Shown here: one piece after another, positions 22,431 through 39,822 of the stretch
How positions within the stretch are numbered: the first letter of the stretch is position 1
Layout of the letters: each line of letters opens with the position of its first letter
DNA from: Candidatus Micrarchaeota archaeon
GTDB lineage: Archaea; Micrarchaeota; Micrarchaeia; Anstonellales; Anstonellaceae
Reading direction: 5' to 3'
Assembly (NCBI GenBank): GCA_964458205.1
Contig: CAYWFJ010000003.1
Location: forward strand, 1-42,175
Length of the DNA stretch: 42,175 nucleotides
The notes under the pieces: generated by a model
Told to the model about the DNA's origin: nothing
Seen by the model: only the letters and a program-made list of their open reading frames with translations
The model's database searches: none
Made by a program: the position numbers and the translations under genes

Positions 22431-22455
22431 GGGAAGCGCTCCAAGGAACCCACGC

Positions 22456-22484
22456 GGGCTCGTAGCTCAGCTTGGATAGAGCGA
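22456..22484 (+). other. Isolated tRNA 5' part (acceptor 5' strand plus complete D-arm, positions 1-27), duplicate of the 5' part of the downstream tRNA-Arg
   Basis: GGGCTCG-TA-GCTC-AGCTTGGATA-GAGC-GA. A 21-nt stretch (AGCTCAGCTTGGATAGAGCGA) is identical to 23505-23525. The acceptor strand can pair with CGGGCCC at 23721-23727 (one G-U) and perfectly with CGAGCCC at 31659-31665 and 31753-31759 (minus strand). Confidence 0.6.
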
Positions 22485-23475
22485 TTTTATGGAAAGAATC
22501 GTTTTCATCCCTGGAAAACAGCGGGAGATGGTACTTGGTTTCATATCGCATACGGGCAAAAGCCAAGTAAAGGCAGCGAAATTACTTGGTGTTCCGAGGC
22601 GAACACTAAGAAATTGGATAAACGAAACGCGAACTATTCCCGCCGGTATTTTTGGAAAAATGATTCACGCATGCCCTGAGTTGAAGATTTTTTCAAGCAG
22701 CATTCGCAAGGTTCTTGATGCCAATTGGGGCAGAACGAAAGGCGGAAAGAACTGTTATGCTGTCCTTCGAAAAAAATATGGTGAAGACGAGCTTATGCGA
22801 AGAAAACGGTCGGGTGGCGCGGCTTCGATAAAACTGAGGCTGGAGAAAATAACGCGCAAACTGCCCCCACCTGATGACGCTCGCGTCCTAGAACTGCTTG
22901 GCGCACTAATCGGAGACGGATGGATAGGGATTAGCGGCGGAAGAAAACAGGTATGCTTCTGCGGGAATCTGCGCCAGCAAGCGTATGCAAAACATTTGCG
23001 AAAACTCCTGTGTCGGGCTTTCGGTGTCCGCGGTTATTTCAAGTTACGAGAAAAAAATACTGTATTCTATATTATCGTGAACTCTGGCCCTATTTTTGAT
23101 TTTTTTAAGAATGAATTCGATTTTCCAGTAGGCGCCAAGAAGAAATTCAATACGCTTCTGTTGCCATCCGAAACTGAAGAAGGGCTAACAGTTATACGTG
23201 GAATTTTTGATACGGACGGCGGAATATATATGGACAATGCGCCAGGTTATGCTCGTCCGTACCCGGTAGTGGACATAACTTCGCACAACCCAGAATTACT
23301 CGGATGGATATCTAAAACCCTGACTAAAAAGGGTTTTAAGGTGATTAGCCTTAAGTATAGCATCCGCCTCAAGACCATTAGTCAGGTGGAGCGCTGGTTT
23401 AACGAAGTTAAGCCATCGAATAAAGTCCACGTAAATAAGTGGAACCTCTGGAAGAGCAAATACATGGGCCCGTAA
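22485..23475 (+). mobile_element. LAGLIDADG homing-endonuclease cassette embedded in or next to a tRNA gene; visibly AT-richer than its flanks
   Basis: Bracketed by the duplicated tRNA 5' part. Base composition drops (for example 23041-23160 is A/T-rich). Contains a double-motif LAGLIDADG ORF. Confidence 0.6.
22489..23475 (+). CDS. LAGLIDADG-family homing endonuclease with N-terminal HTH
   Basis: Two dodecapeptide motifs, LELLGALIGDGW and VIRGIFDTDGGIY. N-terminal HTH KAAKLLGVPRRTLRNWI. The last codons (ATG GGC CCG TAA) overlap the tRNA-Arg acceptor GGGCCCGTA. Confidence 0.85.
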   Translation: MERIVFIPGKQREMVLGFISHTGKSQVKAAKLLGVPRRTLRNWINETRTIPAGIFGKMIHACPELKIFSSSIRKVLDANWGRTKGGKNCYAVLRKKYGEDELMRRKRSGGAASIKLRLEKITRKLPPPDDARVLELLGALIGDGWIGISGGRKQVCFCGNLRQQAYAKHLRKLLCRAFGVRGYFKLREKNTVFYIIVNSGPIFDFFKNEFDFPVGAKKKFNTLLLPSETEEGLTVIRGIFDTDGGIYMDNAPGYARPYPVVDITSHNPELLGWISKTLTKKGFKVISLKYSIRLKTISQVERWFNEVKPSNKVHVNKWNLWKSKYMGP

Positions 23476-23728
23476 GCGAAAACAGATTGTTTGTTTTCCC
23501 GGGAAGCTCAGCTTGGATAGAGCGACACTCTCCTACCCTAGGGGGCAGATGGTCATCCGTCGATCCCCCTAAGGGTTCACCCCCAATCGGCAACATTGTT
23601 GGGGGATGAACCTGGAAGAGCATTGCGCTTTTTCCGCGAATGTGCGGAGAAAGGTGAAGGTCGTGAGTTCAAACGCCGTTGTCTGGCAACGTGTTGCCAG
23701 CCCTTGGCTGACAATCTCACCGGGCCCG
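23466..23728 (+). tRNA. tRNA-Arg(CCU) with three putative introns (31 nt at 9/10, 116 nt at 37/38, 41 nt in the T-loop at 59/60); mature length 75 nt
   Basis: Hand fold: GGGCCCG TA [23475-23505] GCTC AGCTTGGATA GAGC G ACACT CUCCUA [23536-23651] A GGTGA AGGTC GTGAG TTCAAA [23674-23714] T CTCAC CGGGCCC G. The acceptor is 7/7 Watson-Crick. The anticodon stem has 4 pairs plus an A-A at 27:43. A T-run follows at 23734-23739. The alternative 5' exon at 22456-22484 is unresolved. Confidence 0.6.
23536..23590 (+). repeat. 55-nt intron module shared with the tRNA-Lys T-loop intron
   Basis: CCCTAGGGGGCAGATG..GATCCCCCT..GGTTCACCCCCAATCGG. About 47/55 identical to the minus strand of 31782-31836. Confidence 0.8.
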
Positions 23729-25142: not shown

Positions 25143-25390
25143 ATGAACACCTCGATTGATTTTTTTTCAGCCCGCAAGCGCGCGGGAAAAGCCAAAGCTA
25201 TCGAATTTTTTTCGAGACGTTCGGGCACTTGCCAAGCCACCCAAGCGCGGAAACTAGTCCCAGAAATAGATAAGGTGCAGGCTAGAGGCAGATGAAACGC
25301 ATAGTGTGTTTGCGCTTGCTGGCATTGCTAGCACCGATAATGGATGTGGGGGGAACGGTTTAAATAGGCTTGTAACGGAAACGCGGGCGG

Positions 25391-28300
25391 CTAGTCGATA
25401 AGATAGATGGAATTTACGCTGCTGCTTGAGGCTACGGAATAGGCGAAATCAAGCCTCCGGGCTTCCTTCGCATACCTGCCAGTAAGATAGCTTGCAACCT
25501 CGGTCCTGTTTGAAAGCGGATGCCAGCCCGTCTGTTCGGTTATATAGACGTGCGCAAGATTGTTGTCTTTTGCAAACTGCCTTGCGACATCAAGCACGGC
25601 TTCGCAGAACTTGCCCACATCGATTTGCGAAACGAAATCGGTATTCGGGTTGAAGCCACGCAAGAGAAGCGACTTTTCGCCGTTTACCTCGACAACGTAC
25701 GCCATTATGTTGCCCCTGGCGACAGACTCGTTCTCGATTATGTTCATGTGGAAGTGCTCCTGGCGGTTGAAAAGCCCGATATCCTGCGCAGTGCAGACCC
25801 CTGCGGAGGCTTTGGCGAAGAAGGACGCCTGGTTCTTTGAAAGGTATGCCCTTATGTTTGCGCCAAGCTCGCCTTTGGTTTCCTTGCTTTCCTCGAATTT
25901 CTTCATGTCGGATTTTGCCTGCGCAAGGATAGGCGAGATTGCCTTGCTGAATATTATTTTTGAGAGGACATCTGCCGTCTTTTCATTGCTTTCAAGAATC
26001 GCCCCCCAATCCGGCTTTTCGGGAAGGGACAGCTGCTTTTCGATTGTGACCTGGCGGCTTGGGTCTGAGAGGTTTTTTTTCACGGCTTCCGAGATTTCGG
26101 GCTTTTTATCAAGGAGGCTTGCAAGCCTGTGCGAATAATTGTCCTTGAAGTATATCCCCATTACCTCCCTGAATTCTGTGAGAAGCGCATATGCCGAACT
26201 GCTGTCCATCTCCCGCTCCTGCGTGGTGAAATTTGCCACAAACTCGTCCCTTGCCATCGGGTACATGAGCGTGCTTACCTCTTCCGGTGAATAGTTCGTC
26301 CCTGCGCGGGCGACCTTCACGAATGCCTGCCGAAGCGCCTTTGCCCTGTCCTCGCCCTTGGGAAGCTCCGGAGTAAGAGCTGAAACGTATTTTGCAAATG
26401 ATGCGAAATCAAGATTGGCGCCTTCCCTAAGAACGTAGCTTTTCTGGCTTGCGGAAAGCGAATAGCCGCCCTGGGGGAAAACGTAGCCTGAAAGGTCATT
26501 TGTCCTGTCAGAAACCTGAAGAAGGAGCGATTCCACGTTCTCGAAGCTCATGCCGACCGGCTTATAGGCTATGTAGACCATCTCGGCAAGGATTCCCTTG
26601 TCCTCTTCCGGCAGGAGGCTGCCGATAGGCTCGTTTTTGAAGAATTTTGATTTGATGGTTTCCACCTTCTTGACAAGCTCGGCCCTGCCCGCAGGGTCAA
26701 GCTTAACATAGCTTGCGAAAAGCTTGGGGGTGGGAGCCCCGATTTCGCGGATTGCGCTGAAAATCTTCTCCTGGTTCTTTGCCGGGGAGAAGCCATCCAT
26801 TCCCGCAAGCGTATCCACCGTTGTATTGAACTCGTTCGGGTATTGCGCGAGAAGCTGGCGCAGGAACTCGCGGTCGGTCTTGAGGAAATTTACGGTGCCT
26901 TTTGCAAGATAGCCGCTTTCCACAAGCTTTTTTGCCAAAAAATCGAAGCGCCGCTCGCCTGCGCCTTTCCTTGAAATGAGCTTGGTTGCCATGTGGCTGC
27001 CGTTTGCCCTGTCGATTCTCGAGGCTGCAATCGCCATCCTTGCGGCAAGCGCTGCATCCTTCCTGCCTGCTTCGCGTATGAAGAGGTCAAGCACGCGGCG
27101 ATTCCCTTCGATTAGGCCGATTGCGCCTAAGATGTCACACGCGGACCTGCTTGCGCGGCCAAGCTTTTTCGAATTCTCGATTTCCTCGGAATAAGTGTCA
27201 AAAATAAGGTCAATCTCCTTTTCCCCCAATTGGCTGATGGCAATCTTCTGTTTCATCACGGCATCCCGCTCTTCCGCAGGCAGCTTGAGCGCTTCTTCAA
27301 GAGGGAGGAAGGCATGGGCGGCTATCAGAAGCCGGCTGTTGCCTGATAAAGACGCCTCAGATGCCAGCTTTCCGACCATCCCCGAAATTTCATCCGGCGA
27401 GCCTGCTTTTGCCCCTTCCTTTAGCTCCATGTTCTGGTAAGCCCTGAAAAGCACCCCAATGCTGAAATTTCTTGCAGAAGCGGAATGGTCATACTGATAG
27501 ATGAAAGACTCGCGGTTCCCTGTCGCTGATGCGCAATCAAGCGACTTTTCGCGCAATGCAATTGGCGCCTGCTCTTCAATCAAAAGCTCGGCGAGGCTTT
27601 TTGCCTGAGGCAATGTTTCTATTGCAAGTGCCTTGTACATCGCAGCATCGGCATAATTCCCTGCCGAACCTGACGGGTCAGTGAGACGCGCTTCCTTTTC
27701 CGCCTCTGCGCTTGCCAAGCCATAGGATTTTGACCTTATCTCCGATGGCAAAGCTGATTTTTCCGCAATCCGACGAAAGGCGTCCTTCCCGCTCATCTCG
27801 ACATTGCCCCATCCTTTCACTTTTCCGCCACGGTACCCTTCGGCGAATTTCCAAAATAGATCGGAACATTTTGAAACAACCTCGGCATCGTAGGCACTTG
27901 ACGCTTGGACGTATGAGAAGAGCGCCTGCCCATAGGCATCGCCTTTCTCGTAAAGCCCGGCTGCAAGGCCAACCCGCTGGTTGTTAATGGAAGTGGAATT
28001 GAATTCGTATCCTTTTTCAGACAGTATGTCGCCAGCCTCAACGAACTTGCCCTGTTCTGATAGGGAATCCGCCGCTTTTACAAGGCAGTCGAATGCGAGC
28101 TCCTCCTGCCTTGCCCGAACCGATGGCACGATAGCAATGCTTCTTGCTTTCAAATAGGCAGTGGCTGCTTCCTTGAATTCGCCATTGCCAAACCTTTTTT
28201 CGGCTTCTTGAATGTAGAAGCTGAAGATTTTGCGCTTGGAGGATTGGTCGTCCATCTTGACGTATTCCGACAGCCCGTAACCATTTGCATAATTCAGAAT

Positions 28301-30943
28301 CTCTGCCGCCTTGCCAAACTCGCCTGCAAGTTCAAAGAGCCTGATTGACTCAAGCCCGCATTTTTCCGCAAGATCAGCCTCGCCTTTTTCATGCAAGCTT
28401 AAGGCGGCAGACTTATATGCTTCTGCCATTATCGCGTGCCCCTCTGGCGAAACGAAGAGCTTGCTGGATTTGGAAAGCACTGCCATTCCTCTCAGCAGCA
28501 TGTTCTCTTTTGTTTTCGGACCGATGAATTCGCGGGTAGATTCATCAAGGAGATTCTTGAAAAGATCATAGAAAGAGCCTGATTGAAGGCAAAGCGACTC
28601 TGCCTTGCCATAGTAAGCTGCTGCTATGCTTTTATCGGGCTCTTCGATGAAAAGCCGGAAATAGCAATTCATCGCATCGCGCAGGCTTTCGCCCGCCTCC
28701 TTTGGCTTCTGCTCGGCAAGAAGGGAATCTGCTTTCTCTTCATAGCTTCTGGCCGCACTAAGAAGAGAGTTCCGCCGCTTTTCAAGAAGCCCCTCCTTTT
28801 CAGTTACATCCGCATATGAAACAGCATATTGGTAAGAATTGCTGGCTTCTTTGTGCTGCCCTGCAAGCCCGTAATAATCGCCGGCTTTCTCGAAAAGGCG
28901 GCAGGCTGCTTTTGAGACATGTTGCCGTTCATCTGAACCGATGTTGGTGGAGAACATATAGGCCGAGGCAACCCGCGCATAGCCTGTGTCTTTATTGGCA
29001 GGGTCGGCAAGCCGCTCAAGCCGACTGGCAATCGATTCTACCTTGGCAAATGAATATGCCGCAGCATGAACGCCCGGAGAATAACTGGATTGCCTCTGCC
29101 GCTCATTCCAATATTCATGAATGGCGGAGCTATAACTTGAAAATGCGTTATGCTTGTCCCCGGCAAGCTCGTAAAGCTCGCCTATGCGGACATGGCGCTC
29201 CGCTTGTTCCTCATAGCCGCCCAAGTCGCGATCCATATATTCTTTCCTGGCTTCCTTGAGGTATTTTTTCCTATTGAAAACGCTCTTTATGCCCTTTTCC
29301 TTGGCAAGGCGGGCACCGAACTCATCGTTTTTGAGCGAAAGAAGGCGCTCAATCCTTTCATAGCATGCAAGCCTGCTGCCCACGGATGAAAAGATGTTTG
29401 CCTTATCGCGCCACATCTTGATTGCTTCGTCAATCTTTTTTTCAGAGACAAGGCGCGATTCATCTATGGAATAGCGCTCGATTGCAAAAGCCTCGTATTG
29501 GGATAGCTTTCCCCCATATTTTGCCTTAAGCTCGTCCGAACCTGGGTCAAGCCTTGAGATTGCGCTATTGTAGGCTTCAATAACCGTATCAGGGGGATAA
29601 ATAGGAAGATGATTCCGCAAATTGAGAAACCCCCCGTCAAGCTTTTCAAGATAGGCATCCCGCAATTCCTGGCTTGGTGCATGCCTAACCGCCCTGCCAT
29701 AGGCGGTGATTGCGTCCATCAATCCATAATGCGGCATGGATTCGCTCCCGCCCGCCCTTAAAAAAATCTCCCCCGCAATTGCGGCATATTTGGTTATCTC
29801 TCCGTCTTCCCGCGCTGTGGATGATGCCTTCATGTAAGCGTTGCCAGCCTCGGCAAGTTTGCCTTCCTCGATAAATTTGACTCCTCCTTTTGCAAACAGG
29901 TATGCCGCAGTCCGATAATAATCATCCTGGATTCCCCTTTCGCGTACTTTTTCGGCAAGATTTTTCTTATAGGCATCCGCTGCCTCCAAAAACCTGCCTT
30001 CCCCCACCAGGATTTTGGCTTCGTAAAGATAAGCATCCAGGCTTCTTGAGCGGCAATCCGCCTCCTTTGCAGCCCAGGCTATCTTGGAAGAGGGATTGAT
30101 GGCTGCTTCGTCCAACTTCCCATAAGCAGCTTTAAGCTCCCAAAAAAGCTCGGCTTCGTTGTGTTTTTTTTCATGTTCCAGACGGGATGCTTCTTTCATT
30201 GAAACCTCGTAATTACGGATATTCCGCCAGATCCAGTAGGGTATTGGCCCGCCGTCTTTGTTCTTTTCGCCAGCATTTATGCAGTCGTTGAAATGCTGCC
30301 CGATTGCCTTGCATAGCCCTGCGCTATAAGCCATGCCAAGCGCTTCAAACTCACGCTCCGCTTTGGAAATGAGCTTAAGCGCTTTATCCGGATTGGAGGC
30401 GTAGCATGCATCGCTTTGGTGCCGTATTGCCTTATTCTTAAGGCGCCTCTCCATGGCAAGCTCCAGCCGCTTCTTTAGGTAGTCGCCTGCCCTTTTCGCA
30501 ACGTGCTCTTTCCCCTTCCTTTCCTCCTCCTTTGCCTTCTCGCGCGTGATTTCGTTTGATTGCTGCGAAACTATGATGCCCTCGCTTCCCTGGTGGCTGC
30601 TGCTGTGCGCTGCGGAGAACTTCGTATTCTCCTGCCTTGCCGCCCCTCCGCCGCCTTCGCTGTGCTGCGAGCGGTGGATTGCCGGGCCGAACCTTCCGAA
30701 TGCGGAAATGATGATTTTTTCTATCTTTTTTGCGTGCTTCCTTGAGATTTTCGTGTTCTCCTGTTTGGAGAGGTGCCAAAGCGAGCGGAGGTTGGCCGAG
30801 AGCTCCTCTTCCGAGAATTCGGCTGCCTCTGGCTTTAGGTATTCCTTGGAAAGCTCGGCTATGTCGCTTAAGTGCTCCATGGAGAGGTCTGGCTTGCCTT
30901 GAGGAAAGGAAACGGCAGGGGTCTTTGGAGGCGTGGGCTTCAT
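25391..30943 (-). CDS. Giant cytoplasmic helical-repeat (TPR/SNAP-like) protein, 1850 aa, with a distinct C-terminal globular domain
   Basis: No signal peptide or TM helix. At least 8 copies of G-x-(F/L/H)-x-EA-x-x-(A/S)-Y-like units, such as GRFLEAADAYKK, GKLAEAGNAYMK, GEFKEAATAYLK, GKFVEAGDIL, GEFGKAAEIL and GQHKEASNSYQY. The last ~200 aa (..GNIMAYVVEVNGEKSLLLRGFNPNTDF..) are non-repetitive. Confidence 0.8.
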   Translation of the reverse strand: MKPTPPKTPAVSFPQGKPDLSMEHLSDIAELSKEYLKPEAAEFSEEELSANLRSLWHLSKQENTKISRKHAKKIEKIIISAFGRFGPAIHRSQHSEGGGGAARQENTKFSAAHSSSHQGSEGIIVSQQSNEITREKAKEEERKGKEHVAKRAGDYLKKRLELAMERRLKNKAIRHQSDACYASNPDKALKLISKAEREFEALGMAYSAGLCKAIGQHFNDCINAGEKNKDGGPIPYWIWRNIRNYEVSMKEASRLEHEKKHNEAELFWELKAAYGKLDEAAINPSSKIAWAAKEADCRSRSLDAYLYEAKILVGEGRFLEAADAYKKNLAEKVRERGIQDDYYRTAAYLFAKGGVKFIEEGKLAEAGNAYMKASSTAREDGEITKYAAIAGEIFLRAGGSESMPHYGLMDAITAYGRAVRHAPSQELRDAYLEKLDGGFLNLRNHLPIYPPDTVIEAYNSAISRLDPGSDELKAKYGGKLSQYEAFAIERYSIDESRLVSEKKIDEAIKMWRDKANIFSSVGSRLACYERIERLLSLKNDEFGARLAKEKGIKSVFNRKKYLKEARKEYMDRDLGGYEEQAERHVRIGELYELAGDKHNAFSSYSSAIHEYWNERQRQSSYSPGVHAAAYSFAKVESIASRLERLADPANKDTGYARVASAYMFSTNIGSDERQHVSKAACRLFEKAGDYYGLAGQHKEASNSYQYAVSYADVTEKEGLLEKRRNSLLSAARSYEEKADSLLAEQKPKEAGESLRDAMNCYFRLFIEEPDKSIAAAYYGKAESLCLQSGSFYDLFKNLLDESTREFIGPKTKENMLLRGMAVLSKSSKLFVSPEGHAIMAEAYKSAALSLHEKGEADLAEKCGLESIRLFELAGEFGKAAEILNYANGYGLSEYVKMDDQSSKRKIFSFYIQEAEKRFGNGEFKEAATAYLKARSIAIVPSVRARQEELAFDCLVKAADSLSEQGKFVEAGDILSEKGYEFNSTSINNQRVGLAAGLYEKGDAYGQALFSYVQASSAYDAEVVSKCSDLFWKFAEGYRGGKVKGWGNVEMSGKDAFRRIAEKSALPSEIRSKSYGLASAEAEKEARLTDPSGSAGNYADAAMYKALAIETLPQAKSLAELLIEEQAPIALREKSLDCASATGNRESFIYQYDHSASARNFSIGVLFRAYQNMELKEGAKAGSPDEISGMVGKLASEASLSGNSRLLIAAHAFLPLEEALKLPAEERDAVMKQKIAISQLGEKEIDLIFDTYSEEIENSKKLGRASRSACDILGAIGLIEGNRRVLDLFIREAGRKDAALAARMAIAASRIDRANGSHMATKLISRKGAGERRFDFLAKKLVESGYLAKGTVNFLKTDREFLRQLLAQYPNEFNTTVDTLAGMDGFSPAKNQEKIFSAIREIGAPTPKLFASYVKLDPAGRAELVKKVETIKSKFFKNEPIGSLLPEEDKGILAEMVYIAYKPVGMSFENVESLLLQVSDRTNDLSGYVFPQGGYSLSASQKSYVLREGANLDFASFAKYVSALTPELPKGEDRAKALRQAFVKVARAGTNYSPEEVSTLMYPMARDEFVANFTTQEREMDSSSAYALLTEFREVMGIYFKDNYSHRLASLLDKKPEISEAVKKNLSDPSRQVTIEKQLSLPEKPDWGAILESNEKTADVLSKIIFSKAISPILAQAKSDMKKFEESKETKGELGANIRAYLSKNQASFFAKASAGVCTAQDIGLFNRQEHFHMNIIENESVARGNIMAYVVEVNGEKSLLLRGFNPNTDFVSQIDVGKFCEAVLDVARQFAKDNNLAHVYITEQTGWHPLSNRTEVASYLTGRYAKEARRLDFAYSVASSSSVNSIYLID

Positions 30944-30976
30944 TGAGGGAACATATGCTTAAATGAGGTTAAAAAG

Positions 30977-31633
30977 CTACTTTTTTTTCCCCGCGATGAA
31001 CAGGTGCTCAAGGTCGAACGGGGAAAGCTCTATCTGCTGGGAGACATCGATATCCGAGCCGACCTTGTTAACGAACTCCTCGAATATCTTTTTCGGCTGG
31101 CGCGTGACATCTATGCTTTGCGATTTTATGGCAATCATGCCCCAGCCGCCTTTCTTCAGGAAAAGCAGGCTGTTTTTGAGGAATATGTCATCCTGGTCGG
31201 GCTGCGCGACGTCCTGGTAAATCACGTCAACTTTCCCGATGCCCTCCGCGTAATCCTGCGGGGCGCGCGCGTCGCCCATTATGGGGAGCATGTTGGGACG
31301 CGACTCGCAGACCGAGAGGAGGTCGCGCATGGAGCGCTGCGCGAATTCAACGCAATACACTATGCCTTCCTCGCCAACGATGTCGGAAACGTGCGAAGGA
31401 GTGGTGCCCGTGCTTGCGCCTAAGTAAAGAACAGATGAGCCTGGCTTGATGGGCATTTCCTTCAGCCCTTTGTGTATTGCAGCGGCGAGCTTGCTCCTGT
31501 AAATGTCCCACATGCGGTATTCGTCCTTGCCGTCGGCAACGAGCTTCTCGCCGTAAACGCGCCTGCCCGGGGCTAGCGATTTTGTCGCAAGGCGGTTGGT
31601 CACCAGGTATACGCCGGGGAATTTTTCGTCCAT
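30977..31633 (-). CDS. flpA: Fibrillarin-like rRNA/tRNA 2'-O-methyltransferase
   Basis: Shows RVYGEKLV...YRMWDIYRSKLAAAI...PGSSVLYLGASTGTTPSHVSDIV...VYCVEFA..DARAPQDY..VDVIYQDVAQPDQ. The ORF-track start 31642 is TTG; the ATG is at 31633. Confidence 0.92.
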   Translation of the reverse strand: MDEKFPGVYLVTNRLATKSLAPGRRVYGEKLVADGKDEYRMWDIYRSKLAAAIHKGLKEMPIKPGSSVLYLGASTGTTPSHVSDIVGEEGIVYCVEFAQRSMRDLLSVCESRPNMLPIMGDARAPQDYAEGIGKVDVIYQDVAQPDQDDIFLKNSLLFLKKGGWGMIAIKSQSIDVTRQPKKIFEEFVNKVGSDIDVSQQIELSPFDLEHLFIAGKKK

Positions 31634-31652: not shown

Positions 31653-31735
31653 TGAAAGCGGGCTCGGTCCCTAAACCCCGGAGGGGCAAGCCCCTCCCTG
31701 GTTCAAGGGTTCCTCCGGACCCACCCCACGAAATA
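31653..31735 (-). other. Orphan tRNA 3'-end-like segment (ends ..GGGAC CGAGCCC G) including a 16-nt direct repeat of the tRNA-Lys 3' end
   Basis: TGAAAGCGGGCTCGGT occurs at 31653-31668 and again at 31746-31761 (plus-strand reading). The segment between them contains GC-rich hairpins (GGAGGGG-CTTG-CCCCTCC; CCGGAGG...CCTCCGG). I could not fold it into a complete tRNA. Confidence 0.4.
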
Positions 31736-31751
31736 TTTGTGATTATGAAAG

Positions 31752-31937
31752 CGGGCTCGGTGGGATTTTCACAAGGCGCACCCGATTGGGGGTGAACCAT
31801 CAGGGGGATCGTCTGCAGTGCATCTGCCCCCTAGGGTTTGAACCCACGGCTTTCTGGTTACCTCAGTTGCCAATTATCCGCAATCGGATAAGAGCCATAA
31901 AAGCCAGACACTCTAGGCCAAGCTGAGTTACGAGCCC
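31752..31937 (-). tRNA. tRNA-Lys(UUU) with two introns (39 nt at 37/38, 71 nt in the T-loop at 59/60); mature length 76 nt
   Basis: Hand fold of the minus strand: GGGCTCG TA ACTC AGCTTGGCCTA GAGT G TCTGG CUUUUA [39-nt intron with TTATCCG-ATTG-CGGATAA hairpin] (N38) CCAGA AAGCC GTGGG TTCAAA [71 nt] T CCCAC CGAGCCC G. All stems are Watson-Crick. 186 nt total = 76 + 39 + 71. Confidence 0.75.
31782..31836 (-). repeat. 55-nt intron module (copy inside the tRNA-Lys T-loop intron)
   Basis: Minus strand reads CCCTAGGGGGCAGATG CACTGCAGAC GATCCCCCT GAT GGTTCACCCCCAATCGG. Compare 23536-23590. Confidence 0.8.
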
Positions 31938-38247: not shown

Positions 38248-39111
38248 CTACTCCTTGAAATGGGCCCTGAGAGCCCCCTCTATCGCATCCTTAAGCGATG
38301 AGTGCCCTTCGCCTTTGCGCACGAAAACGATGCCGGATTCGCTGAGCTTGCCCGCGTCCAGTTCCTCGCCGCTGTGCAATATCGCCTTAAAGGGGATGCC
38401 CGGCCTTGCACCCCTTATCCCTTCGATAAGCCCGATTCCATCCATCGGCTGGCGCATGTCGTAGTCCGTTACCACAACATCAGCAGGGATTTTTTTGAAC
38501 GAATCGAGCGCAAGATGCGGATTGGTGAAATACGATACGTTTTGATAGCCTGCCCTATTCAGGTTGTCCCGTATCAGGCGGCAGGTGGTTTCATCGTCAT
38601 CCACCAGCAGTATGCTTGCCTTTTTGAAATCCTTTCCATGGGAAAGCCGCTCAACCGCATCGAGAAATGCATCAAGCATGAATGGCTTCTTCAAAAGCGC
38701 ATCGGCAGACGGGACGGACAGGCCAGGGGTTCCGGATGCAACCATGACACGGACTTCAGCCCCCCCTTCGCAGCTTCTAATCCGCCGGATAAGCTCGTCC
38801 CCGTTCATCAGCGGCATGCTAAAATCTGTTATCAGTATGTCAAAAGGCTCCTTTTTGAATGCCTCCAGGGCATCCAAAGGCGAAGTGAATGACGTAACCG
38901 ATTTGAAGCCGGCATCCGAGATTATCTCGCGCATCAGGCCGCACATCGGCGCGTCATCATCGACCACGAGCACGCGGGATTCCTTGCCCTTCCTTTCCAA
39001 AGCATTGGAAAGAGGGGGCCTGCCAGTGAACACTGGCCGCGGCAAGGGGCTGCCTTGCTTTGCCCCGGTGCCTGAGCCGTTCTTGGAAAATGCGGAATTG
39101 TACGCGCCCAT
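38248..39111 (-). CDS. Tandem receiver-domain (REC-REC) response regulator without an output domain
   Basis: Two CheY-like units: RVLVVDDDAPM...DILITDFSMPLMNG and SILLVDDDETT...DVVVTDYDMRQPMDG. Confidence 0.8.
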   Translation of the reverse strand: MGAYNSAFSKNGSGTGAKQGSPLPRPVFTGRPPLSNALERKGKESRVLVVDDDAPMCGLMREIISDAGFKSVTSFTSPLDALEAFKKEPFDILITDFSMPLMNGDELIRRIRSCEGGAEVRVMVASGTPGLSVPSADALLKKPFMLDAFLDAVERLSHGKDFKKASILLVDDDETTCRLIRDNLNRAGYQNVSYFTNPHLALDSFKKIPADVVVTDYDMRQPMDGIGLIEGIRGARPGIPFKAILHSGEELDAGKLSESGIVFVRKGEGHSSLKDAIEGALRAHFKE

Positions 39112-39168
39112 GGTTAATCCCGTGCTTTTCTCATGCGGAGTGTTTAAAAGGCATTTTGAAGCGCCCCC

Positions 39169-39822
39169 CTAAAGGGTCTTGAAAAGGAATCTTAGGACGC
39201 CAAGAAGGACAGTAAGGGAAAGGAAGGCGCCTGCGGCAAGAAGGACGATTCCCGGCACCAGCCAGGAAACAAGCGCCTTTTTCCAGCCGAACTTGAAAAG
39301 CGCGCCGATTGAGACTGTGAGGAGATAAAATCCATAGATGAGCATCGAGAAGGCGACAAGGTCGCCTGCAAGCTGGAAAATCCCCGCGCCGAGCGGAAAG
39401 GAAAGATTCTGCATAATTGACTTTAGGAGGAGGACTGCGATGTTTATGACTATGGTGAAAACGAATGTCGGGGCTGCGGCAAGGCTCACCATGTAGTAAA
39501 GCCTGCCAATCTCGGCCTTGCCCCCAAAGAATGACGTGGTGGCTGACAGCATCAGCGTGAAGAGCCCGGAAACTGCGATGATGGCAAGCGCAGTTGCAGC
39601 AATGCTGAAAAGCAGGGCGGCAAGGTATATCGCCTCGAAATTGCCAGAGAGGAGAAGCGCAAGGAGAAGAAGCGGAAGGTATGTCATCAGGATGGGCGTG
39701 CCGAAATTCTCAAGCCCGTCGCGGAAGGAAAGCTCCTTCCGCTTGGCATGGATGGCTGCGGTTTTTTTGGGCGAGAGCATCATCTGGTTCCAGGAATCGG
39801 TCCGCTCTTGGAATTCCAGCAT
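39169..39822 (-). CDS. Yip1-like multi-pass membrane protein
   Basis: About 45-aa hydrophilic N-terminus followed by five hydrophobic helices. The family call is tentative. Confidence 0.45.
   Translation of the reverse strand: MLEFQERTDSWNQMMLSPKKTAAIHAKRKELSFRDGLENFGTPILMTYLPLLLLALLLSGNFEAIYLAALLFSIAATALAIIAVSGLFTLMLSATTSFFGGKAEIGRLYYMVSLAAAPTFVFTIVINIAVLLLKSIMQNLSFPLGAGIFQLAGDLVAFSMLIYGFYLLTVSIGALFKFGWKKALVSWLVPGIVLLAAGAFLSLTVLLGVLRFLFKTL

Follow-up and report, generated by a model that had tools for sequence, protein, structure and literature searches.

Contig 3 of a Candidatus Micrarchaeota genome assembly (GCA_964458205.1, contig CAYWFJ010000003.1) carries two heavily interrupted tRNA genes, tRNA-Arg(CCU) on the plus strand and tRNA-Lys(UUU) on the minus strand, and one intron of each begins with a copy of the same structured module of about 60 nucleotides (nt). 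The window, by which we mean the whole stretch of DNA analyzed here, spans 42,175 nt of this contig, and the assembly to which it belongs is a draft of 0.99 Mb in 79 contigs that is 81% complete. No RNA run is listed among the sequencing runs that contain the region; the DNA runs that do are wastewater metagenomes from several studies, and two runs of a second study, X3 and X4, hold contigs of a population about 90% identical in this stretch. Here, we describe the module, its distribution among related genomes, and the evidence that it moves, and we discuss how its copies in tRNA genes may be removed by splicing.

Two Copies of a Module in Interrupted tRNA Genes

ARAGORN reports no tRNA gene in the unspliced window, and a search of the window against Rfam at the gathering score returns no family. 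Exon boundaries were read by hand, the exons were joined by coordinates, and ARAGORN was then run on the spliced sequence. Once joined in this way, the exons give full cloverleaves for both tRNA-Arg(cct), where one A:A mismatch tops the anticodon stem, and tRNA-Lys(ttt). The coordinates of exons, introns, and module parts are collected in Table 1.

A first-pass annotation of this DNA had proposed that the same 55-nt module sits in introns at different positions of the two tRNAs, and this is confirmed. With its 10-nt and 3-nt parts left as N, the 55-nt pattern matches the window exactly twice and without a mismatch, at 23536-23590 on the plus strand and at 31782-31836 on the minus strand; it does not occur in 100 dinucleotide shuffles of the window. 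The two copies are identical at 47 of 55 positions, and all eight differences, described earlier as concentrated in a hairpin loop, lie within the 13 variable positions of the hairpin loop or the 3-nt linker (hypergeometric p 1.06e-6). Each copy also opens at the exon-intron boundary, as had been claimed, its first base being the first intron base after position 37 in tRNA-Arg and after position 59 in tRNA-Lys. The Lys boundary is ambiguous by up to 3 nt in the sequence (runs of A lie on either side), and the bulge-helix-bulge (BHB) rule puts the cut after position 59.

Table 1. Features of the window around the two module copies, and the two further module copies of the same genome.
Feature	Position	Strand	Remarks
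Spare tRNA 5′ part	22456-22483	+	upstream of tRNA-Arg, followed by the ORF below
328-codon open reading frame (ORF), helix-turn-helix (HTH) and weak LAGLIDADG_3	22489-23475	+	just upstream of tRNA-Arg
tRNA-Arg(CCU), three introns	23466-23728	+	exons 23466-23474, 23506-23535, 23652-23673, 23715-23728; ARAGORN cloverleaf
Arg 9/10 intron, 31 nt, unrelated sequence	23475-23505	+	needed for cloverleaf; hand-read central helix CCCG:CGGG
Arg 37/38 (canonical) intron, 116 nt	23536-23651	+	module is the first 61 nt; cloverleaf
Module copy 1 (covariance-model extent)	23536-23596	+	78.7 bits, E 4.7e-21
Copy 1, hairpin 1	23536-23575	+	pairs 1:40, 2:39, 3:38, bulged A37, 4:36 to 10:30
Copy 1, conserved box TCACCCCC	23577-23584	+	
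Arg 59/60 T-loop intron, 41 nt, different intron family	23674-23714	+	needed for cloverleaf
15-nt direct repeat of tRNA-Lys 3′ end and trailer	31760-31746 and 31667-31653	-	stands on both sides of a G/C-hairpin insert of 78 nt; repeat lies 93 nt downstream
tRNA-Lys(UUU), two introns	31752-31937	-	exons 31937-31898, 31858-31837, 31765-31752; ARAGORN cloverleaf
Lys 59/60 T-loop intron, 71 nt	31766-31836	-	first 61 nt are the module, last 6 nt TGAAAA
Module copy 2	31776-31836	-	73.8 bits
Copy 2, hairpin 1	31836-31797	-	
Copy 2, box TCACCCCC	31795-31788	-	
Lys 37/38 canonical intron, 39 nt, unrelated sequence	31859-31897	-	needed for cloverleaf; hand-read central helix CUUU:GAGG
Gly(UCC) T-loop intron copy, same genome	C1:32471-32550		
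Cys(GCA) 37/38 intron copy, same genome	C19:969-888		

Architecture and Constraint

In an alignment of 17 copies, and then in 88 unique copies, the near-invariant positions of the module are 1-12 (CCCTAGGGGGCA), 29-35 (TCCCCCT), and 42-49 (the box TCACCCCC); a loop of 16-20 nt and the tail after the box vary. Positions 1-10 pair with positions 30-40 around a bulged A, and 95% of the cells in the 17-copy alignment are paired. Two pairs of that alignment vary on both sides, a number reached by 12 of 500 shuffles, and the five G:C pairs never vary and are therefore uninformative on structure. Self-pairing of the loop is not general (12 of 64 distinct loops have z < -1.64, with a mean z of -0.32 against shuffles). 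The box is paired with a downstream run of G, forming a second hairpin, in 19 of 29 intron copies as against 7 of 27 non-intron copies. As to the idea of a third strand, in which a second C5 run joins the G5:C5 hairpin, one of the 88 unique copies (L091) changes all three strands and five change the box alone.

The consensus boxes of C/D RNAs are RUGAUGA (C) and CUGA (D), which together form a kink-turn. The module was rejected as a C/D box small RNA, there being no conserved C box column, no CUGA except in copies with G at position 36, and no Rfam match. A group I intron accompanied by a LAGLIDADG gene was likewise rejected, as no Rfam family reaches the gathering score anywhere in the window, and so was the loop as a guide sequence, as BLAST of both modules in their own genome finds only chance-level short matches outside the module copies. 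The box and its next base (23577-23585) read TCACCCCCA, one base off the last nine bases of the 16S rRNA match, TCACCTCCA (C36:1517-3090 of the same genome); this resemblance to the anti-Shine-Dalgarno sequence, noticed post hoc, may be due to chance.

When copies at the same position of the same tRNA are compared across genomes, the arms are 88-100% identical, the loops 36-75%, and the tails 36-83%. The four copies of the genome to which the window belongs share 95% of their arms and 56% of their loops and are no more alike than same-tRNA copies between genomes. The likeness of the two window copies is thus what arm constraint alone gives, and it sets no date for a transfer. To the first-pass annotation, the shared module looked like a clear example of intron transposition between tRNA sites; the 47/55 identity is not evidence of a recent jump between these two tRNAs, as the same pattern separates same-tRNA copies of other genomes. 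By their sequences, the two copies would be alike through constraint on the arms and not through a recent jump from one tRNA to the other.

Distribution and Genomic Contexts

BLASTN searches of the genome with both modules and a covariance model built from module copies (R1), the checks that had been proposed earlier, were carried out, and they count four copies, each of which maps to a tRNA position within an intron: Arg 37/38, Lys 59/60, Gly(UCC) 59/60, and Cys 37/38. The Cys gene splices to a clean cloverleaf; the Gly gene needs a second intron removed, after which ARAGORN misplaces the anticodon. In a genome-wide run, ARAGORN -i called the Cys gene Ser(gct), and the genome-wide listing of RF00005 matches lacks the module-bearing Arg, Lys, and Gly genes.

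A 27-nt pattern allowing up to three mismatches is present in eight of 401 genomes sampled across the phylum, all of one genus (the present genome and 7 of 14 others), and the same pattern read backwards gives no match in these 401 genomes. With R1 at an E-value threshold of 0.01, 33 of 42 genomes of the family have matches, including 22/22 of the same genus and 2/2, 4/7, 2/5, 1/1, 1/1, and 0/3 in the other genera. A scan of the order at E 0.001 finds matches in 41 of 151 sampled genomes (f1 32/41, f7 3/3, f5 4/74, f6 1/19, and none in the other families). The copies number 1 to 22 per genome, and these counts in draft genomes are lower bounds because the repeat evidently breaks assemblies; numerous copies lie within 250 nt of contig ends in G012, G013, G053, and G412 (L065, L067, L075, L077-L079, L082, L091). 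A viral origin was rejected, the exact pattern having no match in viral contigs.

For the reading of contexts, 78 sources were fetched, which yielded 97 R1 matches and 92 unique contexts that were classified by hand. Twelve copies are in 37/38 introns (Arg CCU, Arg UCU, Cys), 18 in T-loop introns, and three in the T-arm a few nt further 3′; 19 are trailer copies that lie 1-5 nt behind a tRNA 3′ end, 13 are secondary units of tandem arrays, 14 are flanked by a duplicated target, and 13 have an unclear context. A regular expression applied to the same contexts places 17 copies directly after a T-loop motif, 19 starting 10-22 nt after one, and 56 elsewhere. Similar modules occur in different tRNAs and at different positions, in Arg and Cys at 37/38 and in Lys, Gly, and Tyr-like genes at 59/60. 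The intron and trailer copies are all sense-oriented, the intron copies start 0-1 nt after the predicted 5′ cut, and the trailer copies are followed by oligo-T; G012 has module-bearing trailers behind three tRNA-Val isoacceptors. What had been named as refuting the proposal, a generic repeat found mostly outside tRNA genes, applies in part, as only about one third of the copies are in tRNA introns in the relatives examined, yet all four are so in the genome at hand.

Some copies stand apart from these classes. Some arrays in G012 and G013 (L039 1389, L080 352-412) begin some 8-10 nt downstream of TATATAAT, a TATA-like run, and not behind a tRNA, and each of their units is followed by oligo-T; judging from these signals, such arrays may be free-standing transcription units. 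One copy in G217 (L006 1432-1492) lies in frame and without a stop inside a 286-aa stop-to-stop ORF, the end of which reads NSWG..WG..GY, presumably a papain-like motif. In G313 (L055-L058), other perfect hairpin cassettes are found inside module copies, between GGYTC(A) and the CACCCC within the box, and the model matches only positions 1-44 of these split modules.

Target Duplications, Empty Sites, and Turnover

Evidence of movement comes from copies outside introns. In eleven copies that are not array units, a stretch of 13-41 nt runs up to the first base of the module and is directly repeated just behind the element, with lengths of 13, 13, 14, 15, 16, 16, 17-26, 18, 13-18, 24, and 41 nt; in a control with reversed flanks, none of the 92 contexts has a repeat of 13 nt or more. 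Wherever the context could be read, the duplication extends to the boundary of a gene. It corresponds to the first 41 nt of a uvrA-like ORF, to the first 13-16 nt of tRNA genes (three cases), to the final 16-17 nt of tRNA genes that have the element in antisense orientation (two to three cases), or to the last codons and stop of ORFs on the opposite strand (two sites). At the insertion site of G053, eight other genomes of the genus have a single copy of the target and no element. The uvrA-like site is matched once, from the last repeat copy onward, and free of the element in 21 of 22 other genus genomes, the remaining one being unmatched. Duplications with matching empty sites in relatives establish insertion with target duplication as real. 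A preference for gene boundaries may reflect survivor bias, if only gene-restoring duplications persist, or a mechanism tied to transcript ends.

The introns of the window are themselves subject to turnover. At the tRNA-Lys gene, the X3 contig skips 31772-31836, the module part of the T-loop intron, and the X4 contig continues with unlike letters from 31771; the module part is thus skipped or replaced, and the TGAAAA end of the intron is kept. Orthologues of tRNA-Lys were found in 19 other genomes of the genus. Across the 20 genomes, the T-loop holds the module in two (the present genome and G213), a diverged variant keeping only the box half in one (G217), unrelated introns at 59/60 in five, another family a few nt upstream in 11, and no intron in one (G183). 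With occupancy so different, the Lys T-loop is a hot spot whose content changes. At tRNA-Arg, the X3 and X4 contigs join 23671 to 23713, so that exactly the 41-nt T-loop intron is missing, and they keep the module in the 37/38 intron with a changed loop and a compensatory exchange in pair 3:38 (23538 C>G and 23573 G>C). The Arg module has counterparts in the Arg(CCU) and Arg(UCU) genes of other genomes. At its 3′ end, the 41-nt Arg intron is similar to the T-loop introns that tRNA-Lys has in G081 and G406 and tRNA-Arg has in G407.

Recent copying is apparent in G012, where eight copies have the same 20-nt loop variant; they lie in three T-loop introns that belong to different tRNAs, behind a tRNA-Val gene as a trailer, and in arrays. 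Of 66 copies, 33.6 have their nearest loop neighbor within their own genome where 7.3 would be expected, a figure that array units inflate and for which gene conversion is an alternative. In the same two tRNA-Gly genes, the module follows TTCAAAA in G012 (L069, L063) and TTCAAATCCCT in G013 (L077, L078); the intron position is thus shifted by a few nt between these sister genomes, and the two copies of G013 do not differ from each other even in the loop.

That the element moves at the DNA level follows from the free copies with duplications and empty sites and from related populations whose introns are absent or replaced at the predicted boundaries. The proposal that intron transposition occurs in a lineage other than Thermoproteales hence holds for the family, which is mobile in Micrarchaeota by the evidence of duplications, empty sites, Lys turnover, and the G012 loop; it is not supported as a recent jump between Arg and Lys.

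Neighboring Insertions

Other insertions lie close to the two tRNA genes. The X3 and X4 contigs join 22444 to 23392 by way of eight other letters and lack the 947 nt in between (22445-23391), which comprise the spare tRNA 5′ part and most of the HTH/weak-LAGLIDADG ORF, so that this insert is polymorphic in related populations. The neighboring LAGLIDADG gene had been seen as a hint of an active mobile-intron ecology. Its LAGLIDADG_3 match is weak (23 bits against a cut-off of 22.5), though the ORF is itself an insertion without a counterpart in the related population. Behind tRNA-Lys, the X3 and X4 contigs skip 31669-31740, and hairpin inserts comparable to the one in Table 1, bracketed by the same tRNA-Lys end, are found in G213, G412, and G183. 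Further along, a contig of a more distant relative in run X8 joins 25390 to 30981 with TTAT between them and lacks the whole 1850-codon ORF at 25391-30980.

Endonuclease and Predicted Splicing

The genome encodes its own tRNA-intron endonuclease, a 396-aa ORF on contig C14 (L092 1174-2364, minus strand) with a PF01974 match that aligns over its full length to EndA of ARMAN-2 (PDB 4FZ2; E 1e-131). Its closest relatives, at 75-83% identity, are in metagenome-assembled genomes titled Candidatus Micrarchaeota, Micrarchaeia, or Anstonellaceae. 4FZ2 is the three-unit epsilon2 enzyme of ARMAN-2 (PMC3488258), which cuts a relaxed hBH intron at position 59/60 in vitro, and 56% of the tRNA genes of ARMAN-2 are given as interrupted (PMC3239211).

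The minimum free energy (MFE) fold of the Lys T-arm with its intron contains the T-stem, a UUCA:UGAA helix, and a canonical 3-nt 3′ bulge (AA^U) that holds the 3′ cut; the junction loop with the 5′ cut leads straight into hairpin 1 and then hairpin 2, an arrangement of the relaxed hBH type. A putative BHB can be drawn by hand for the Arg 37/38 intron, with a CUCC:GGAG helix and bulges UA^C and AA^A. The last bases ahead of the exon are (G)GTGAAAA, or close to it, in all T-loop copies, the Arg copies end in GGAGAA, and the Cys copies end in GCAG plus two bases. The suggestion that the module supplies one half of the BHB motif is not upheld: the complementary strand is the site-specific 3′ end of each intron, since exon UUCA pairs with the last UGAA of the T-loop intron and the Arg and Cys 3′ ends are specific to their sites. 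We infer that splicing occurs at these sites and that the module, with hairpin 1 as the flanking helix, would take up the position of the intronic helix beside the 5′ cut. Target duplication was rejected as a source of the BHB helix, as it works only for the palindromic CUGCAG of tRNA-Cys, where two extra bases are needed even so.

A Probable Mobile Element Family with Predicted Spliced Copies and Its Alternatives

Taken as a whole, the module is probably a family of DNA-mobile elements of about 60 nt, the tRNA-gene copies of which are removed as the 5′ part of protein-spliced introns. A member of this family would consist of a G5/C5 hairpin with a variable loop, a single-stranded TCACCCCC box, and a purine-rich tail, and would be copied at the DNA level within this Micrarchaeota genus and family. 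Its copies would persist where they are harmless, that is, behind tRNAs, between genes, at gene ends with a duplicated target, and inside tRNA genes. In the latter, the element would leave the pre-tRNA as the 5′ part of the intron, the cut falling 0-1 nt before it. Hairpin 1 would stand in for the intronic helix adjoining the 5′ cut, the downstream G-run and the box of intron copies would form the second hairpin, and the short site-specific 3′ end (TGAA in the T-loop, GGAG in Arg, GCAG in Cys) would pair with the exon into a 4-bp helix and a 3′ bulge. The result would be a relaxed hBH-type motif, a kind that epsilon2-type endonucleases cut. The two window copies would represent two old sub-lineages, one of the 37/38 type and one of the T-loop type, that resemble each other through their constrained arms.

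A tentative extension of this model, possible rather than probable in our estimation, regards the element as a portable 5′ splice-site cassette. The epsilon2 endonuclease would accept its first helix as the intronic flank of a cut site, a complementary 3′ end of 4-6 nt would be all that an insertion at any place in a tRNA gene requires to become spliceable, and host enzymes, not a transposase, would move it. The site-specific 3′ end may be acquired by landing in pre-existing introns or by spreading between like sites through recombination.

Several observations weigh against the mobile-element interpretation. The intron copies have no target duplication, and their 3′ ends complement the exon rather than repeat it, so that the insertion mode of the free copies does not by itself explain the origin of the introns. 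The MFE fold of the Arg intron favors a 10-bp intron-internal hairpin that sequesters GGAG, without a BHB. The identical loops in G012 could come from gene conversion among existing copies and not from new insertions. Conserved arms with near-saturated loops and tails point to per-locus selection or gene conversion and not to simple selfish decay, as far as the sequences allow a judgment. The 92 contexts are a non-random portion of about 200 family matches, and kinship makes the genomes non-independent samples.

The search for a mobilizing enzyme points the same way. Among RVT_1, Y1_Tnp, Cas1, Phage_integrase, the TnpB zinc ribbon, and LAGLIDADG_3, the six families searched in five genomes, none tracks the element; of the three genomes of the genus that are rich in copies, at least two lack each family, and G012, which is 100% complete and has 21 matches, has none of the six above the cut-off. 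To our knowledge, duplications that vary from 13 to 41 nt fit no class of transposase. As a separate observation, G313 has a 414-aa TnpB-like ORF (L007, C2 ~38533-39177; Cas12f1-like_TNB, 84.6 bits) that ends about 300 nt upstream of a multi-intron tRNA with two tandem module units behind it.

Instead of a tolerated insertion, the module might be a functional structured RNA kept by selection, an explanation that we consider unlikely. Its 5′ end would be made by the splicing endonuclease in introns and by RNase Z behind tRNAs, and the hairpin with the TCACCCCC box would function as a small RNA, bind a protein, or help the endonuclease to recognize relaxed splice sites. Selection of this kind is in keeping with the near-invariance of arms and box beside varying loops in the 88 unique copies, with the same contrast between same-tRNA copies of different genomes, and with the compensatory change that preserves pair 3:38 in the related population and in the Arg(UCU) copies. 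It would also suit the 52 tRNA-linked sense copies that start at a distance of 0-1 nt from a predicted splice site or, behind a tRNA, of 1-5 nt from its 3′ end, the uniform sense orientation of intron and trailer copies, the oligo-T behind the latter, and the trailers of the three tRNA-Val isoacceptors in G012. However, no processing site is present at the free gene-end copies, at the in-frame ORF copy, or at the antisense copies at tRNA ends, and tRNA-Lys works in relatives with unrelated introns or none. The genome at hand has only four copies, R1 finds none at E 0.01 in 9 of the 42 genomes of the family, there is no Rfam family match, and the C and D boxes are not conserved.

Transposition at the RNA level is quite improbable. 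An excised, circular intron would enter the transcript of another tRNA by reverse splicing or ligation, and a DNA copy of the product would then recombine with the genome; the exact exon-intron boundaries of the intron copies, their lack of target duplication, and the Arg T-loop allele of the related population with exactly 41 nt missing, as expected of loss or gain mediated by complementary DNA, agree with this route. No reverse transcriptase was found in G000, G313, G012, or G013, however, and antisense or free copies with 13-41-nt duplications at sites that are not RNA genes are not expected from reverse splicing. The position-specific 3′ ends differ between 37/38 and 59/60 copies, which means that the whole intron did not move.

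Finally, it is very improbable that mobility has no bearing on the window and that its copies are ancient paralogues, passed on vertically as part of their tRNA genes and alike by hairpin and box constraint: the loop differences among the four copies of this genome and the recurrence of Arg and Cys copies at the same site across genomes would agree with it, but the Lys T-loop copy is confined to 2 of 20 genus genomes and replaced in the related population, its loop is nearer to a T-loop copy that G313 has in another tRNA (2 of 19 positions differ) than to the G213 orthologue (4), and the movement of the family, proven by free copies with empty sites, already contradicts this explanation at the family level.

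Relation to Known Systems

A literature search on tRNA introns in Micrarchaeota and DPANN, miniature inverted repeats, and target duplication returned no description of this element, as judged partly by title or abstract. Judging from the parts of the sources available to us, the closest described case is intron transposition in Thermoproteales, where similar introns in different tRNAs and positions within a lineage are read as transposition with rapid gain and are regarded as transposable elements (PMC4033280, PMC10714607, PMC3239211). The present family is like these introns in that similar intron sequences occur in different tRNAs and positions within one lineage and in that close relatives differ in whether a given tRNA site is occupied, as in the tRNA-Lys T-loop of the 20 genus genomes and in the related populations. 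It is unlike them in belonging to a DPANN lineage, Micrarchaeota, with an epsilon2 endonuclease. As far as the citing papers describe the Thermoproteales introns, there is the further difference that a 60-nt module at the 5′ end, and not the whole intron, is what the copies have in common; compared on the same partial accounts, the module is also found outside introns, in trailers, arrays, gene ends, and an ORF, with 13-41-nt duplications and empty sites.

ARMAN-2 (Candidatus Micrarchaeum acidiphilum) belongs to the same phylum and has the same type of endonuclease and many interrupted tRNA genes, including relaxed hBH introns at 59/60; the introns described in the available parts of these papers are short (13 and 25 nt), and those parts mention no common module, free copies, or mobility (PMC3239211, PMC3488258). 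In Caldiarchaeum subterraneum, a tRNA gene is disrupted by a 1.8-kb element that encodes a recombinase, and the natural population is heterogeneous, according to the portion of the report available (Sugahara et al. 2012, PMC3293823). By that account, the spare tRNA 5′ fragment upstream of the gene, with an insert between, is the layout of the tRNA-Arg locus in the window, and the tRNA-end duplications beside module copies in relatives resemble the case as well; the inserts described here differ in being 60-110 nt long and gene-less and in that the duplicated stretch may be the start or end of a protein gene (PMC3293823).

Outside the tRNA literature, a comparison can be made with short bacterial and transposon-derived repeats. 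Repetitive extragenic palindromic sequences and bacterial interspersed mosaic elements (REP/BIME), miniature inverted-repeat transposable elements (MITE), and Rickettsia palindromic elements are short, non-coding, hairpin-forming, and multi-copy, and they are found at gene ends, between genes, and occasionally in frame. The module is likewise short, hairpin-forming, and multi-copy and occupies similar sites. Unlike these elements, it has no terminal inverted repeats at both ends, its duplications are long and variable, and it has a strong link to tRNAs, in the genes of which its copies are predicted to be protein-spliced introns. Two hallmarks of a MITE or other DNA-transposon derivative are not seen: the only inverted repeat is hairpin 1 at the 5′ end, the 3′ end being a variable purine-rich tail, and the length of the duplication is not fixed.

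Implications

For annotation, the locus is a warning: ARAGORN missed both tRNA genes of the window and the Rfam tRNA model missed three of the four module-bearing tRNA genes of the genome, because these genes are too interrupted for tRNA finders. For the biology of Archaea, the family bears on the unsettled arrival of protein-spliced tRNA introns, a matter that a 2026 preprint on Asgard archaea, after tests of copying, mobile elements, and reverse transcription, concludes "remains open" (bioRxiv 10.64898/2026.10.13.758758). Within a single genus, the element opens introns at two positions of tRNAs, forms trailers, and stands as a free insertion with a duplicated target and matching empty sites in relatives, together with gain, loss, and replacement at exact intron boundaries at the level of strains. 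With its short substrates, a crystallized type of endonuclease, and many natural alleles, it is a tractable system in which the insertion of a hairpin at the DNA level can be tested as a route of intron gain. If the element is indeed a portable splice-site cassette, Archaea would have in it a first concrete route for the arrival of protein-spliced tRNA introns, and the filled and empty sites and duplicated targets would be its footprints.

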